Of a stretch of 35,943 nucleotides of DNA, positions 8,653 to 15,508 are shown piece after piece (positions within the stretch are counted from its first letter, which is position 1; each line of letters starts with the position of its first letter). A program made the translations under genes and the position numbers. The notes beneath the pieces are model-generated. The model worked only from the letters and a program-made list of their open reading frames with translations, was not told the origin of the DNA and ran no database searches. Source of the stretch: Gemmatimonadota bacterium (GTDB lineage: Bacteria > Gemmatimonadota > Gemmatimonadetes > Gemmatimonadales > Gemmatimonadaceae); assembly GCA_043748515.1 (NCBI GenBank), contig JAYTNC010000185.1:1-35943 (forward strand), written 5' to 3'.

Positions 8653-9833
8653 TGCCGTTCTATCACACACTCGGCCAGATCCCGCGCAAGCGGCACATCG
8701 TCTTCCGCAAGCCGGACGGCGGGCTGTACAACGAACAGCTCGTCGGGATCGAGGGCTTCACCGGCCCCTCCGCGCTGCTCTATCACCTACATCCCCCGAC
8801 GACGGTGAAGTCGGCGCGCCGACTCGCCGAGACGCCGTACGTGGAGGACACCGACCGCGCGCTGCGGCACCGCCACTTCCGCACCGCGCCGATCGCGCGC
8901 GGCGGCAGCCCGACGCTCGACCGCATCCCGATGCTGTTCAACAACGACATCGCGATGCTCTACGTCGCGCCCGACAAGCAGGACGAGCATTTCTATCGCA
9001 ACGCGCAGGGCGACGAGGTCGTGTATGTCGCCGAGGGCGAGGGCACGCTCGAGACGCAGTACGGCGACCTGCCGATCAGGCCGGGCGACTATCTGGTGAT
9101 CCACCGCCACATCCTGCATCGCTACCGGTTCACGAAGCCGGCCAAGTTGCTCGTGATGGAGAGTCGCGGGCATGTGCGGCCGCCGTCGCGCTACCTGAAC
9201 AACGTCGGGCAGCTCGTGGAGGGCGCGCCGTACAGCGAGCGCGACCTCCGCGTGCCGCGCGAGTTGCGCACGCACGACGAGAAGGGCGACTTCCCGATCG
9301 TCATCAAGCAGTACAACGGCCTCAACGAGATCGTGCTCGACCATCATCCGCTCGACGTGATCGGGTGGGACGGGCAGTTCTATCCGTGGGCGTTCAACAT
9401 CCACGACTTCGAACCGATCGTCGGCAAGGTCCATCAGCCGCCGCCGGTGCATCAGACGTTCCAGGGCGACGGCTTCGTGATCTGCTCGTTCTGCCCCCGG
9501 CCGTACGACTTCCACCCCGAAGCGATCCCGGCGCCATACAACCACAGCAACGTCGACTCCGACGAGGTGCTCTTCTACGCCTCGAGCGAGTTCATGAGCC
9601 GGAAGGGGATCGAGTACGGCAGCATCACGCATCACCCCGACGGCATCCCGCACGGTCCGCACCCGGGCCGCTACGAGAGCAGCATCGGCATGACGCACAC
9701 CAATGAGCTCGCGGTGATGATGGATTCGTTCCGTCCGCTCAAGGTGGCGAAGGCGATCCTGCCGTTCGAGGACGCGAAGTACATGTATTCGTGGCTCGAG
9801 GCAGGGCAGGGGTTCTCGCCACCGACGTCCTGA
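8652..9833 (+). CDS. hmgA: Homogentisate 1,2-dioxygenase
   Basis: Starts MPFYHTLGQIPRKRHIVFR (TGATG overlap). HPLDVIGWDG, HQPPPVHQTF, PYNHSNVDSDEVLFY and HPDGIPHGPHPG supply the iron ligands. Confidence 0.95.
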   Translation: MPFYHTLGQIPRKRHIVFRKPDGGLYNEQLVGIEGFTGPSALLYHLHPPTTVKSARRLAETPYVEDTDRALRHRHFRTAPIARGGSPTLDRIPMLFNNDIAMLYVAPDKQDEHFYRNAQGDEVVYVAEGEGTLETQYGDLPIRPGDYLVIHRHILHRYRFTKPAKLLVMESRGHVRPPSRYLNNVGQLVEGAPYSERDLRVPRELRTHDEKGDFPIVIKQYNGLNEIVLDHHPLDVIGWDGQFYPWAFNIHDFEPIVGKVHQPPPVHQTFQGDGFVICSFCPRPYDFHPEAIPAPYNHSNVDSDEVLFYASSEFMSRKGIEYGSITHHPDGIPHGPHPGRYESSIGMTHTNELAVMMDSFRPLKVAKAILPFEDAKYMYSWLEAGQGFSPPTS

Positions 9834-10492
9834 TGCGCATCACGCTCGCCGATCTCTCCCCGTCCGAGCGCCACGGCTGGCTCACGCCGCTGATCGTGCC
9901 GCGTCCGATCGCGCTGGTGAGCACGCTGAGCGCGGCGGGCATCGGCAACCTCGCACCCTTCAGCTTCTTCGCGATGGGCGGACAGAATCCGCAGTCGATC
10001 GCGTTCTGCCCCGTCGCCGACCGCGACGGCAACCCGAAGGACACGCTGCGCAACGTGATGGAGACGGGCGAGTTCGTCATCAACGTCGTCTCGCGGCCGA
10101 TGATCGAGCGCGTGAATCAGGCGTCGGCGCCGTATCCGTACGAGGTCGACGAGTTCGATGCGGCCGGCTTCACGCGGGTGCCCTCGACCGTCGTCGCGCC
10201 GCCCCGCGTGGGCGAGAGCATGGCACAGATGGAGTGCAAGGTCTTCCAGGTCGTTCCGCACGGCACCGGACCGCAGCACAGCACGTGGGTGATCGGCGAA
10301 GTGCTCGTGCTGCATGTGGACGACGCGCTCATCGCCGAGGACGGGCTGCCCGACACGACGCGGCTGCACCCGGCGGCGCGCCTGGGGCGGCAGGAGTGGG
10401 CATACGTGACGGCGCAGAACATGCTGATCCTCCCGCGGCCGACGACGGTCCCTGGCGGGAAGCCCGCACCGAGGCGCACGCTCGGGCTCTGA
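9833..10492 (+). CDS. Flavin reductase-like (split-barrel FMN-binding) protein
   Basis: ATG at 9833 overlaps the hmgA stop. Motifs IVPRPIALVST, NLAPFSFF, KDTLRN..ETGEFVINVV and PPRVGES..QMECK. Confidence 0.9.
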   Translation: MRITLADLSPSERHGWLTPLIVPRPIALVSTLSAAGIGNLAPFSFFAMGGQNPQSIAFCPVADRDGNPKDTLRNVMETGEFVINVVSRPMIERVNQASAPYPYEVDEFDAAGFTRVPSTVVAPPRVGESMAQMECKVFQVVPHGTGPQHSTWVIGEVLVLHVDDALIAEDGLPDTTRLHPAARLGRQEWAYVTAQNMLILPRPTTVPGGKPAPRRTLGL

Positions 10493-10537
10493 TCGCGCTT
10501 GTGCTGTCGCTCAGCGCACCATCGATCCGGACGCACT

Positions 10538-10570
10538 GAGGGCCGGAGCTTTTCTAAGGCTCCGGCCCTC
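10538..10570. terminator. Strong hairpin, terminator-like (no U-tract)
   Basis: GAGGGCCGGAGC-ttttctaag-GCTCCGGCCCTC, a perfect 12-bp stem 45 nt after the operon's last stop codon. Confidence 0.6.
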
Positions 10571-10573
10571 GTT

Positions 10574-10810
10574 GCGCCGTCCCCGGAGGATCTTGGCGGC
10601 TATGCCGGGGGAGCGCGAAGGCTCCCGGTTTCCGGGTCGGTGTCGGCTCGGGTGCGTCGTGATGCCACCCGACCGTGCGCCCCGCACAGCGGCGGGATGT
10701 GGGCAGCGGGTCCACGCACGCTCAGCCTTGGCGCTTGGCTCTCCCCTGGAGGAGAGGATCGGGACCAGGTGCCCGAACCGCTTGAGGCATCGCGGAGGCG
10801 TCGCCCTCGC
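10574..10810 (-). ncRNA. Candidate structured non-coding RNA of unknown family (strand tentative)
   Basis: No credible CDS. The ends are complementary (10574-10585/10793-10804 and 10596-10601/10776-10781) and enclose at least six short stems. Two adjacent hairpin loops are complementary. A promoter-like sequence on the minus strand lies at 10820-10850 and the 10538-10570 hairpin would be its 3' end. Confidence 0.45.
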
Positions 10811-11011
10811 TCTGCATGGACACTATTCAACTTGCACGTCGCGCGCGCAATGGGGAGAATGCTTACACGGACCCACGATGCGAGCGGTGCCGACATGCAC
10901 GGCTTGCGACGGCGCGCGGGTCTGCTCGCGGATCGCGCGCTAGATTCCGTGGCCATACCAGACCGCGTGCGACGCGCGCGGCCCGCGCTTCACTCCCTCA
11001 GCTGCCAGACC

Positions 11012-12202
11012 GTGCAGACCACTTCGCGATTCGACAGCCTTCCCGTCTATCTCCTCGCCACGATCCCGCAGAAGAAGCGTGACCTGATCGCGAAGGGCGT
11101 GGATGTCATCGACCTCGGTGCCGGCGATGCCGATCTCGCCGCGCCGCCCGCCGCGGTCGCCGCGCTCAAGGCTGCCGTCGATGATCCCGCGATGAGCCGC
11201 TACGGATTCGGGCTCGGTCTCCCCGCCTATCGCGAAGCGGTGAGCACGTTCATGCTCAAGCGGTTCGGGCACACGTTCGATCCGCTCAAGGAGGTCGTGC
11301 CCCTCATCGGCAGCAAGGAGGGCATCGCGCACCTGGCGTTCTGCTACCTGCAGCGGGGCGACGTCGCGATCATCCCCGACCCGGGCTATCTCGCGTACCT
11401 CGGCGGCACGCTGCTGAGCGAGGCCCAGCCGTATCTGTATCCGCTCACGCCGCGCACGAACTTCCTCGTCGAGCTCGACGACGTGCCGGCCGACGTGCTC
11501 GCGCGCACGAAGATCCTCTATCTCAACTATCCGAACAACCCGACGGCCGCGGTCGCGCCGCTGCAGTACCTCGAGCGCGTCGTGCGCCGCTGCCGCGAAC
11601 TCGGCATCCTCCTCGTGTACGACAATGCCTACTCGGAGATGACCTTCGACGGCTACGTGGCCCCGAGCATCTTCGACGTCCCCGGCGCGCGCGACGTGGC
11701 GATCGAGTTCCATTCGCTCTCCAAGACGTACAACATGACCGGCTGGCGTTGCGGATGGGCCTGCGGCAACGCGAGCGTCGTCGGCGCGCTGAGCAAGGTG
11801 AAGAGCTTCCTCGACACGGGACAGTTCATGGCCGTGCAGCGCGCCGGTATCGCCGCGCTCGAGTCGTGGGAGTCGTGGGTGCCCGGCAACGTCGAGGTGT
11901 TCCGGATTCGCCGCGACGCTGCGGTCGCCGCCTTCCGTGCGAACGGATTCCCGGGGGTGGAGTCGCCGAAGGCGTCGATGTATCTCTGGGTGCCGCTGCC
12001 CGCCGGCGTGAAGTCGCTCGAGTTCCACGAGCGGCTCATGGCCGAGGAGGGCGTGATCGCGCTCGCCGGCTCGTCGCTCGGCGCCGGCGGCGAGGGATTC
12101 TTCCGCATCTCGTTCATCACGAGTCCGGAGCGGATCGCCGAGGCGGCGGTGCGCGCGGGACGCGTGCTGCAGCGGATGCTCGCTAGCGGCGATCCAGACT
12201 GA
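11012..12202 (+). CDS. PLP-dependent aminotransferase class I/II (LL-diaminopimelate aminotransferase-like)
   Basis: Likely GTG start at 11012 (MQTTSRFDSLPVYLLA...DVIDLGAGD). Motifs LIGSKEGIAH, LNYPNNPT, YDNAYSE and PLP-lysine motif FHSLSKTYNMTGWRCG. Confidence 0.88.
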   Translation: MQTTSRFDSLPVYLLATIPQKKRDLIAKGVDVIDLGAGDADLAAPPAAVAALKAAVDDPAMSRYGFGLGLPAYREAVSTFMLKRFGHTFDPLKEVVPLIGSKEGIAHLAFCYLQRGDVAIIPDPGYLAYLGGTLLSEAQPYLYPLTPRTNFLVELDDVPADVLARTKILYLNYPNNPTAAVAPLQYLERVVRRCRELGILLVYDNAYSEMTFDGYVAPSIFDVPGARDVAIEFHSLSKTYNMTGWRCGWACGNASVVGALSKVKSFLDTGQFMAVQRAGIAALESWESWVPGNVEVFRIRRDAAVAAFRANGFPGVESPKASMYLWVPLPAGVKSLEFHERLMAEEGVIALAGSSLGAGGEGFFRISFITSPERIAEAAVRAGRVLQRMLASGDPD

Positions 12203-15200
12203 GCACCACCAGGCGTGACGTCGAGCCGCCACCGGTCGCGATCGCCACGAACTGACGTCCGTCGCTGGTGCGGTACGTCATGGGATTCGAATACGCCTGC
12301 TGTCCGAGGTCGAGTTCCCAGAGCGTGACGCCGGAGCGGGTGTCGATCGCATGGAGCACCCGGCCGCCTCCCGACGCGAAGACGAGACCGCCGCCCGTGA
12401 CGAGTCCGCCGGGTGAGCCCGACACGCCGAGTCGCGAGGGCAGCACCGCGCCGCGCAACGCCGGATGCGCGCGCACCTCGGGGGTGTCGCCGAGCGGCAC
12501 CTGCCACATGGTCTCGCCGGAGTTCATGTCGACGGCGGTGAGTGTGCCGTACGGCGGCTTGTTCACCGGCAACCGCGCGGGCGAGCGATCGGCGCCCTCG
12601 GCGTTGTCGCGCTGCGAGACACCGAGCGACGAGCGCGGGAGGTCGACCACATAGGGTGAATCCACCGTGTCGCTGGTGGCGTCGCGTTTGATCAGGCGGA
12701 AGAGCGCGGGTGCGTTCGAGCCCTTCACGAAGAGCCAGCCGGTGGTGGGATCGACCGCAGCTCCGCCCCAGCCCGCACCGCCGATCACACCCGGCATCGC
12801 GACGGTGCCCTGCTGCGACGGCGGACCGTAGATGGGGCCGAGCCGATACGGCGCGACCTCGGCGAGCGCGGCCGCGCGCAGCGCCGCCGTGAAGTTCATG
12901 AGGTCGTCGGCCGCGAGTCCCTGTTGGGTGAACGGCGCGGGCTTCGTCGGGAATGGCTGCGTCGGCCAAGCGACTTCGCCCGGCACGTCGCTCGCCGGGA
13001 CCGCGCGTTCCTCGATCGGCCAGAGCGGCGCGCCCGTCGCGCGCTCGAACGCGAAGAGCATCCCCTGTTTGGTCGGCACCACGACGATGTCCTTCCGCAC
13101 GCCGTCGTGCGTCACCGTCATGAGGTTGGGCGGAGCAGGGAGGTCGTAGTCCCAGAGCCCGTGGTGCGCGATCTGGAAATGCCAGACGCGCCGACCGGTG
13201 CGCGCATCAAGCGCGACGAGCGACTCGCCGAAGAGATTCGCGCCCTTGCGCTCGCCGCCGTACCAATCGTCGCTCGGCGTGCCGACCGGCAGGAAGACGA
13301 GCCCGCGCGCGCTGTCGACCGTGAACGGCGCCCAGACGTTGGTGTGGCCCTTGTAGCGCCACGACCCGTCCTCCCACGTCTCGTTGCCGGTCTCGCCCGG
13401 TTCGGGCACCGTCTTGAAGCGCCAGACGCGACGACCCGTGCGCACGTCGAACGCCTGCACGTCGCCCGGCGGATCGCCGCGGTACATGAGACGGTCGCCG
13501 ACGCCGTTGCCGACGATCACCAGGTCACCCCAGATCACCGGCGGCGAGGTGTTCGTGTAATGCTCGCGGCGCACCGCGCGCGAGAGACCGGCGGTGAGGT
13601 CGATCGCTCCGTCGGTCCCGAACGAGGCGATCGGCGTTCCGCTCGCCGCGTCGAGCGCGATCAGGCGCCAGCGCGAGTTGATGAACACGCGCCGCGCCCG
13701 GCCATCGGTCCAGGTCGCGATGCCACGGTGCACGAAGCCCGTGCCGTTGCTCGGCTGCCCGTAGGTCTTCCACGGCTGCGGGTCGTACTGCCAGAGTTCG
13801 CGGCCGGAGCGCGCGTCGAGCGCGATCACGCGGTTGAACGGCGTAGGGAAGATGAGTGTGTCGCCGATCGCGAGAGGCGTCGCCTGGAAGAGGCCGGGGC
13901 GCGCGGGCTTCTGCCCCTCGCTCGCCGGAACGGGCCGCTCGTTCGCGTCCCAGCTGAACGCGACACGAAGACCATGCACGTTCGTGCGGTCGATGTCGTC
14001 GAGCGGCGAGTACTTCAGTCCGCCCGCGTCGTTGCCGTAGGCCGCCCAGCCTACCGCACCCCCGCGCGCGCGATCGAGACGTTCCGGAGCGAGCACCGCG
14101 GCGCCGCCTTTCATGACGAACGCGATGCGCTGCAGGGCCGTGATGTCGATCAGCGGATCGCCCTCCACGGCGATCAGGTCCGCCACCCGTCCTTCGGTCA
14201 CGGTGCCGATGCTGTCAGCGAGGCCGAGTGCTTCGGCGGCGAGCGAGGTCGCGGCGCGGATCGCGTCGGCGTTCGCCTGGCCCGCCTCGCGCACACGGTA
14301 CACGATCTCGCGCGCATTCTGCCCATGCCCGCCCGCGACGGCATCGGTGCCCATCACGAGCTTGAGTCCCGGGGTGCGCATCGCCGCGCGGAAGACGGCG
14401 AGGTTCTTCGGCACCACGTCCTCCATGAAGCGGAATCCCTCGTCGGTGAAGTTGCCCACACCGACGAACCGCGCGCGATTCTCGAGGTAGTTCTGGATCA
14501 CGAGCCCGACGTTGGGCTCGAAGAACGTCCCGCGCTGCGCCATGAGCGCGAGGTCGGTCGCCGTCACCTGCGTGCCGTGCGTGACACCGGTGCAGCCGGC
14601 GTTCGCAGCCGCGCGTACGGCCGAGGCGGCGTGCGCATGCACCCAGCTGCGCAGGCCCGCGCGGCGGGCCTCGTCGCAGGCGGCGGAGATCTGCGCGTCG
14701 CTCAGTGTCTGGCCGCCGCCGTCCCTGATGCTCCGTGAAGAGAAGATCTTGATGACATCGGCGCCGCGCGCGGCGGTCGCGCGCACCCATTCGCGGATCT
14801 GCTCCGGCGTGCGCGAAGTATCGCTGAACTGTGCCACCGACGTGAGGATGCGCGGTCCCTCGGCGCGCCCCTCGGCGATCGCGCGACGGAGTTCGAGGTC
14901 GATCGCCGCGCCAAGGCTCTGCACGGTCGTGAAGCCGGCGCGCACCGTGAGCTGCGCGTTCTCCATCGCCGCGCGCAGCCGCTGCTGCGGCGTCTCGCCG
15001 CGGGTGTTCGCGCGGCCGTCGGCGCCGAAGTGGCCGTCGATGTGCACGTGCGTGTCGATGAGACCGGGCAGGACGGTCCGGCCGGAGAGGTCCCACGTGA
15101 CGACCGTTCCCGCGCGCCAAGGCGCGATGCGCGTGATCCGTGGACCGTCGATGGTGAGCACGACGTCGCGCCGCACGCCGCCGCGACCGTCGAGGAGCGT

Positions 15201-15374
15201 GCCCGCGCGGATGGTGAGCGGAGCGCGCCGAGCATCGGCAGCGGCAACGTTGCGGGTCGCTACGTCGTGCGGCGCGCCGGCTTGCGGCGTGTCGGCCGCG
15301 AGCGCCAACGGGATCGCGAACATCACGGCGCGACGGAGCGCGCCGGAGTGGATCATGCCTGAACGAATCGTCAT
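12183..15374 (-). CDS. Secreted fusion: amidohydrolase (metal-dependent TIM barrel) + PQQ-dependent glucose/quinate-type dehydrogenase
   Basis: Single uninterrupted ORF; start placed at ATG 15374 (GAGG upstream), tentative. N-half has PGLIDTHVH, VIKIF, VHAH, THG, GTDA and ends VMKGG. C-half has W.AYGND.GG.KYSPL..I...NV, QATPL, TSPP, HHGLWDYDLPAPP, KPPYGTLTAVD and PMTY. Confidence 0.85.
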   Translation of the reverse strand: MTIRSGMIHSGALRRAVMFAIPLALAADTPQAGAPHDVATRNVAAADARRAPLTIRAGTLLDGRGGVRRDVVLTIDGPRITRIAPWRAGTVVTWDLSGRTVLPGLIDTHVHIDGHFGADGRANTRGETPQQRLRAAMENAQLTVRAGFTTVQSLGAAIDLELRRAIAEGRAEGPRILTSVAQFSDTSRTPEQIREWVRATAARGADVIKIFSSRSIRDGGGQTLSDAQISAACDEARRAGLRSWVHAHAASAVRAAANAGCTGVTHGTQVTATDLALMAQRGTFFEPNVGLVIQNYLENRARFVGVGNFTDEGFRFMEDVVPKNLAVFRAAMRTPGLKLVMGTDAVAGGHGQNAREIVYRVREAGQANADAIRAATSLAAEALGLADSIGTVTEGRVADLIAVEGDPLIDITALQRIAFVMKGGAAVLAPERLDRARGGAVGWAAYGNDAGGLKYSPLDDIDRTNVHGLRVAFSWDANERPVPASEGQKPARPGLFQATPLAIGDTLIFPTPFNRVIALDARSGRELWQYDPQPWKTYGQPSNGTGFVHRGIATWTDGRARRVFINSRWRLIALDAASGTPIASFGTDGAIDLTAGLSRAVRREHYTNTSPPVIWGDLVIVGNGVGDRLMYRGDPPGDVQAFDVRTGRRVWRFKTVPEPGETGNETWEDGSWRYKGHTNVWAPFTVDSARGLVFLPVGTPSDDWYGGERKGANLFGESLVALDARTGRRVWHFQIAHHGLWDYDLPAPPNLMTVTHDGVRKDIVVVPTKQGMLFAFERATGAPLWPIEERAVPASDVPGEVAWPTQPFPTKPAPFTQQGLAADDLMNFTAALRAAALAEVAPYRLGPIYGPPSQQGTVAMPGVIGGAGWGGAAVDPTTGWLFVKGSNAPALFRLIKRDATSDTVDSPYVVDLPRSSLGVSQRDNAEGADRSPARLPVNKPPYGTLTAVDMNSGETMWQVPLGDTPEVRAHPALRGAVLPSRLGVSGSPGGLVTGGGLVFASGGGRVLHAIDTRSGVTLWELDLGQQAYSNPMTYRTSDGRQFVAIATGGGSTSRLVVLSLDRR

Positions 15375-15508
15375 TGCAGCCTCGGAGAGCGGATGCGCCG
15401 GAATCTGGGGTGTGTGGACCGCGCCGGCCAGAACGGATCGCCTCGCGCCATCGCGCACAACACCGCATCGGTCTCGCGCGACCCCCCCGGACGAGTTACC
15501 ATCCGGCC

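Follow-up and report, generated by a model that had tools for sequence, protein, structure and literature searches.

The minus strand of the window, by which we mean the whole 35,943-nt stretch of DNA that was analysed (contig JAYTNC010000185.1 of a Gemmatimonadota bacterium), encodes what sequence comparison identifies as a new family of stand-alone structured RNA with a narrow range. The RNA, of ~245 nt, would act in trans through its shape, as a putative scaffold or decoy binding a host protein, a reading to which we assign a probability of about 0.5. An earlier note on this DNA had proposed a stand-alone structured non-coding RNA at this site, and conservation, covarying helices, conserved promoter boxes, an end hairpin and varying neighbours all support that proposal. 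A homolog search and a covariation check, both suggested in that note, gave 84 distinct homologs and covarying helices.

The element lies between the end of one plus-strand gene at 10492 and the start of the next near 11012. The first, a flavin reductase-like gene (9791..10492, plus strand), ends an hppD-hmgA run and is convergent with the RNA, while the second, a class I/II aminotransferase gene (11012..12202, plus strand), is divergent from it and is closest to LL-diaminopimelate aminotransferase, with a score below the curated cut-off. Overlapping open reading frames have no Pfam match, no reading frame is conserved, and the length of the 5′ domain takes every residue modulo 3 across homologs. 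Further along, window positions 12183-15458 (minus strand) hold a 1091-aa stop-to-stop frame with an amidohydrolase domain and a PQQ dehydrogenase domain, which is either a fusion or two in-frame genes.

Transcription is inferred to proceed on the minus strand from a sigma70-family promoter, to start at 10815 and to end at a hairpin. Both minus-strand boxes described earlier are present, a −35 box TTGCGC (10850-10845) and a −10 box AATAGT (10827-10822), lying 35 and 12 nt upstream of the predicted start, the G of GCAG at 10815. Across the main set of 76 copies, the distance from the start of the −35 box to the first G is exactly 35 nt (36 in three copies), with T at −35 in 76/76 and G at −33 in 73/76, and the −10 box has A at −11 and T at −7, each in 73/76. 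Position −12 is C, A or G and never T in these copies, and the tRNA and SRP promoters of the window genome, read by eye, have T there. An alternative sigma factor is therefore possible, a reading weakened by the T at −12 in 4/8 divergent copies and by the region-2.4 glutamine being kept in the three RpoD-like paralogs seen. A consensus promoter and terminator scan of the window returned 0 sites, and a genome scan for the element-type promoter found one other convincing site; this second promoter of the same type, at G000:C383 near 1587 (plus strand, 22.5 bits), is upstream of a response regulator gene. The previously described 12-bp hairpin was likewise found (10538-10570, minus strand); it is terminator-like, has a weak U tract in the window copy, was not called by the terminator scan and has a median stem of 14 bp in 74 copies. 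Promoter and end hairpin together uphold the orientation proposed before, on the minus strand and convergent with the hppD-hmgA-flavin reductase genes.

The 84 copies comprise the 76 and 8 more divergent ones. Of 60 relatives searched with BLAST, 12 gave a match and 11 of these matches are real; locus L013, and 19 of the 21 other weak loci that BLAST returned, were discarded as chance. A strict pattern, applied to one genome per species, matched 52 times, and 40 of these matches scored at least 80 bits with the covariance model (39 titled Gemmatimonadota and one titled ‘bacterium’); the other 12, none titled Gemmatimonadota, are chance matches, 11 being unscored and one a 24.7-bit partial. A pattern scan of metagenomes added 63 matches, of which 50 fit the profile and 13 were dropped for failing it. 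The 76 copies that these searches yielded together divide into 68 of full length, which share a mean pairwise identity of 67% (minimum 51%), five without the 3′ domain, one without the 5′ junction, one with an internal deletion and one cut by a contig end. Three of the eight divergent copies also lack the 3′ domain, giving eight short copies overall. The only copy without the 5′ junction (P2-P4), L010 in G023, keeps P1, P5, P6 and the 3′ domain, and in L006, from a 2.3-Mb genome (G035), an internal deletion that is either decay or misassembly takes out the 3′ strand of the 5′ rod. One divergent copy, L360 in G346, has a −10 box that starts with T and sits directly upstream of tRNA-Arg(CCT).

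The element is single copy in the window genome, and two matches per genome occur in G318 (C32, C106), G471 and G537. Its neighbours, read from sequence by eye beyond the window's own genes, differ by clade and include aminotransferase, outer-membrane protein, cytochrome/permease-like and other genes. The copy in G328 and the second copy in G318 also adjoin an aminotransferase gene; the G318 pair, both beside aminotransferase genes, reflects either paralogy or bin contamination.

The alignment of 68 full-length copies contains 63 pairs in 12 helices that are 95.7% paired, as against 35-45% for slid controls, and 42 of the 63 pairs show two-sided changes. Because the consensus structure was derived from the same 68 sequences, a tree-based count of compensatory events weighs more, and it assigns 3-8 such events to many helix pairs. 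The body of the RNA, ~243 nt (10573..10815, minus strand), with bounds set by the predicted +1 and by ends of RNA contigs, is organized from 5′ to 3′ as P1, an irregular rod, a three-way junction (P3, P4), a short linker, P5, P6 and a P7 junction (P8, P9), followed by the end hairpin. In the 5′ domain (10703..10815; helices 1-6, 93-100% paired), P1 closes on the first base, G1-C113 and C2-G112 being paired in 40/40 copies of a divergence-enriched set, and the irregular P1b/P2 rod leads to the junction of P3 (10757..10778), a 7-bp hairpin and the best-conserved stem (98.9% paired, four two-sided pairs), with P4 (10739..10756), which has a variable loop and two-sided change in 4/4 pairs (97.1% paired). 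P5 (10681..10696; 100% paired, three two-sided pairs) is present in all forms seen, and P6 (10644..10675; helices 8-9, 85-92% paired) varies in length. The 3′ domain (10575..10642; helices 10-12, 96.5-98.9% paired) consists of P7 and, on top of it, a second three-way junction from which P8 (10609-10626) and P9 (10597-10607) project, and its loss from the eight short copies indicates that it is dispensable.

What is conserved is the shape and not a pairing seed, since 45 of 60 near-invariant columns lie in helices and no unpaired run of at least 3 nt is conserved at 85% in the alignment. With the divergent copies added, 17 columns are invariant; these copies remodel the P1 internal loop and retain the helix, and the apparent invariance of that loop is partly an artefact of the search pattern. 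A pseudoknot between nt 6-8 and 22-24 (85% at its variable pair, one compensatory event) was not adopted. The 5′ end (10815-10804) also resembles the loop and 3′ strand of P5 (10690-10681), making alternative pairing possible.

This fold differs in part from the one first drawn for the window. The six stems and the complementary CCTGG/CCAGG loops reported there are all fully Watson–Crick in the window sequence, and four of the stems are kept across the 68 homologs, at 10609-26 (97% paired), 10648-72 (86%), 10739-56 (85%) and 10759-76 (100%), whereas CGTGCG/CGCACG (59%) and AGCC/GGCT (55%) are not. The two imperfect closing helices likewise exist in the window (9/12 and 5/6 pairs) but are only 60% and 70% paired among the homologs, and in place of the single closed multi-branch structure they were thought to join at its 5′ and 3′ ends, the covarying helices form two distinct domains. 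The kissing loops, once taken as a defining feature, are 45% paired, with slid registers equal at 49-52%; their pairing beats column shuffles, yet is no better than that of neighbouring registers, and five complementary bases occur in only 8/68 copies, seven of which have the window's loop sequence. The feature is incidental. A folding z-score, also suggested earlier as a check, depends on the end hairpin: it is −0.01 for 10571-10815 without the hairpin, and −3.1 (minus strand) and −1.65 (plus strand) with it; among 23 of the 68 homologs it averages −2.1 in sense and −1.5 in antisense. The minimum-energy fold of the window's copy differs from the consensus fold, and single-sequence folding is weak evidence for an RNA here.

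The element belongs to part of the family Gemmatimonadaceae, where it occurs in five genera and is patchy within them. Model searches found it in 20/55 genomes of the window's genus (12/26 of the high-quality ones), in 38/87 of genus g21 (30/48 of high quality) and in 7/30 of genus g20, and in a draw across the family 7/150 genomes carried it, including 3/3 of g16 and one of g113. Outside the family it was found in 0/119 genomes, a search in which 21 candidates were scored per genome, so that distant relatives can be missed. Wider models added nothing further in the same phylum draw and nothing in 10 near-complete non-carriers, the latter run having no positive control; a loose pattern gave counts at control level in the genus. 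The site upstream of the aminotransferase gene is empty in 5/5 near-complete non-carriers, and complete close relatives without the element exist alongside other complete genomes with it. A tree of RNase Y genes from the window's genus, built from 51/55 genomes (G017, G019, G018 and G323 left out) and two outgroups, has one clade of 11/11 carriers, with the others scattered, and requires at least six changes. Genomes with the element are larger than those without, with medians of 3.9 vs 2.8 Mb (12 vs 14 high-quality genomes; kin not independent). Three genomes of the window's genus (L300, L301, L303) also share a conserved non-coding leader, situated ~100-250 nt upstream of the RNase Y gene.

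Environmental sequence data show signs of expression, namely RNA contigs whose limits fit the predicted ends. Part of the window occurs in 24 runs (14 studies), 22 of them recorded as RNA and all with small shares of it. In 4/4 runs examined (four studies; settings including soil, sediment and water), RNA contigs lie on the element. Their upper ends lie at 10803-10806 in every run, and one run also has an end at 10815; in two runs the lower ends reach 10573-10577. A contig from soil runs from 10573 to 10806 and has adapter-like ends on both sides, and no contig covers 10837-11080 in the four runs. In two runs the summed contig depth on the element peaks at 369 and 170, while the flanking genes do not exceed 7 and 15; in a third it is 8.5, less than in a flanking bin (14). 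These figures describe mostly relatives' RNA, in runs chosen for containing the window and lacking a DNA control, and carry no readable strand or level.

As the earlier note had supposed from missing hallmark motifs, the element matches no Rfam family. Nothing in the window reaches a gathering score; a search of 10200-11200 with E up to 10 gave chance-level matches only, the best being Xoo2 on the end hairpin (25 bits vs a cut-off of 45), and eight homolog loci gave no more than this. ARAGORN places no tmRNA at the element; a full tmRNA lies elsewhere in 5/5 relatives, four of them carriers, and none exceeds the cut-off in the window's own 72%-complete genome. The element does not match RNase P RNA (RF00010), which lies on C184, and SRP RNA is on C498, the element having no S-domain match and a loop pair that is 45% paired. 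Ro60/TROVE genes, on which a bacterial Y RNA reading would depend, were found in 0/55 genomes (control positive in 2/14), and for the raiA motif there is neither an Rfam match nor a long-range pseudoknot among the top covarying pairs. With E up to 10 the element matches no Rfam family of the Ms1/CoRP kind; Ms1 is among the families modelled there, and the comparison with CoRP is indirect.

A divergent 6S RNA, the identity that the earlier note had named as an alternative, is unlikely because a separate 6S candidate exists in carriers and non-carriers. The element does not match RF00013, nor does it fit the 6S architecture of a single rod closed by the 5′ and 3′ ends with a central bubble, which another locus in the genome does. 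Weak sub-threshold RF00013 matches in two relatives (L304, L305) led to this homolog at G000:C302:2176-2374 (plus strand; L334:477-675), a rod with a bubble and a folding z of −3.7; 5/5 genomes tested have it, among them two that lack the element. It likely represents the unannotated 6S RNA of the family, a candidate for which Rfam itself returned no match at E 0.5 at C302; in L304 and L305 the 6S-like RNA is upstream of apparent queD-folE genes, as read by eye.

No such RNA appears in the titles and opening lines of abstracts retrieved for Gemmatimonad 6S, non-coding or small RNA, motif and covariation. The string ‘Gemmat’ is absent from the main text of bioRxiv 10.64898/2026.10.21.760802 and of PMC11109978, and from one supplement of PMC8632094, although large automatic cluster sets (PMC5737381, PMC11109978, bioRxiv supplements) may already hold the motif unnamed.

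A trans-acting, protein-binding RNA fits these observations best, because the shape, and no seed, is conserved, the neighbours are free and the ends are fixed; the genomic neighbourhoods are several, and none of their genes is a constant partner in cis. Passages of PMC11077062 and PMC12968392 offer precedents for abundant structured RNAs that act in trans and are bound by proteins. The stand-alone RNA would bind a candidate host protein as scaffold or decoy, and its working unit would be the 5′ junction domain with P5, given that eight copies drop the 3′ domain. Since one copy has lost the 5′ junction but still has the 3′ one, both junction domains may offer binding surfaces that partly duplicate each other. 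Such an RNA could have an accessory regulatory role in slow growth or under stress and be lost from smaller genomes. Two clues to a partner were abandoned: TROVE, absent from 55/55 genomes, and the count of sigma factors, since sigma70 region-3 genes overlap in number between carriers (4-6) and non-carriers (2-5) and do not separate them. A much bolder version, which we consider improbable, is that the family forms a new and abundant class of modular RNA machines in soil and sediment Gemmatimonads, whose one or two look-alike three-way-junction domains might sequester RNA polymerase or another central machine, or self-assemble via the P3 loop, and so provide these slow-growing bacteria with a dormancy control unrelated to 6S.

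Among more specific possibilities, a second RNA-polymerase-binding RNA of the Ms1/CoRP kind, which would keep core or holoenzyme in reserve in non-growing cells alongside canonical 6S, is a special case of protein binding that we scored apart and hold to be doubtful. In its favour, the element is stand-alone, structured and seemingly common in RNA from soil and sediment, and sections of PMC11077062 report polymerase-binding RNAs of 85-516 nt unrelated to 6S, two of them in S. coelicolor. The lack of an Rfam match and of a single rod closed by the two ends, the separate 6S-like RNA in all five genomes tested and the absence of the element from complete close relatives argue against it.

Less likely again is an RNA-only device, binding a small ligand or forming a homo-oligomer through a self-complementary P3 loop as OLE, ROOL and GOLLD do. 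This loop self-pairs over at least six bases in 47/68 copies vs 32% for shuffles, a signal mixed up with the effects of simple stem extension and of kinship (22 loops being identical); in 12 copies the loop differs, and there self-pairing covers just four bases. The sequences are 97% compatible with nt 6-11 pairing at long range with the 5′ strand of P5, but this alternative amounts to one clade-level change with weak covariation and competes with better-supported helices, and few invariant unpaired bases are left after the divergent copies are added.

Slightly behind it stands a base-pairing small RNA that would regulate mRNAs. A promoter of its own, a terminator-like hairpin and a patchy range, all shown by the element, are typical of small RNAs; against this stands the want of a conserved unpaired seed. 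Its best genomic match, of 18 nt, is same-sense, lies in the neighbouring gene and is not conserved in 10 other loci. An exact 18-nt inverted repeat links window positions 11255-11272, in the aminotransferase gene, with 10769-10786, in the RNA; being absent from 10 other loci, it is likely due to chance.

A cis-acting riboswitch or attenuator is very improbable: an aptamer-like irregular core is directly followed by a terminator-like hairpin and some copies have a same-strand gene downstream (a rough count gives 37 same and 34 opposite), but the element is not placed ahead of genes of related function on its own strand, in the window and five relatives the next gene is convergent, downstream genes are unrelated and RNA contigs end at the hairpin. 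We give equally little credence to an orphan mobile-element RNA (omega/reRNA- or bridge-RNA-like) or non-autonomous mobile unit, for which the patchy range (at least six changes on the genus tree), several chromosomal sites, two copies in three genomes and one copy beside a tRNA speak, and against which stand the single copy in the window genome, fixed ends without a variable guide at either, clustered neighbours that by eye show no recurring transposase, nuclease or recombinase, the 11/11 carriers of one clade, and searches of viral contigs, phages and plasmids in which the element was not found (a loose pattern gave 0/80 scored viral loci, 80 of 120 returned).

Few bacterial RNAs of this size are both structured and stand-alone, and raiA/ModT, Ms1 and CoRP turned out to be linked to growth control. 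High-GC phyla are poorly served in this respect, as ncRNA screens favour low-GC genomes according to part of PMC11109978. The narrow range of the element limits its wider importance; it does offer strong covariation, natural deletion variants that map a minimal core, natural carrier and non-carrier relatives and complete genomes of carriers, and it is directly testable.

The Alu domain of large SRP RNA has a three-way junction with two short hairpins, which the element resembles, differing in that its loop-loop pairing is not conserved and that it has no S-domain motif. With 6S RNA (RF00013) it shares its own promoter, an end hairpin and a long irregular rod, here in the 5′ domain, and it differs in having neither the central bubble nor the 5′/3′ closing stem. 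Like Ms1 and CoRP as portrayed in parts of PMC11077062, it is lineage-restricted, intergenic, structured, a few hundred nt long and unrelated to 6S; in contrast to them, it has a two-domain fold, is patchy within genera and coexists with a 6S candidate, and its binding of RNA polymerase is only putative. From raiA/ModT, as presented in sections of PMC12968392, it is set apart by range, five genera of one family vs over 2700 species, and by the two-pseudoknot core and conserved 10-nt linker of raiA, neither of which was found in the element. The same sections also show shared traits: both are stand-alone structured bacterial RNAs with a conserved closing P1, both have subtypes that drop peripheral stems, and trans action, which we infer for the element, would be common to both.
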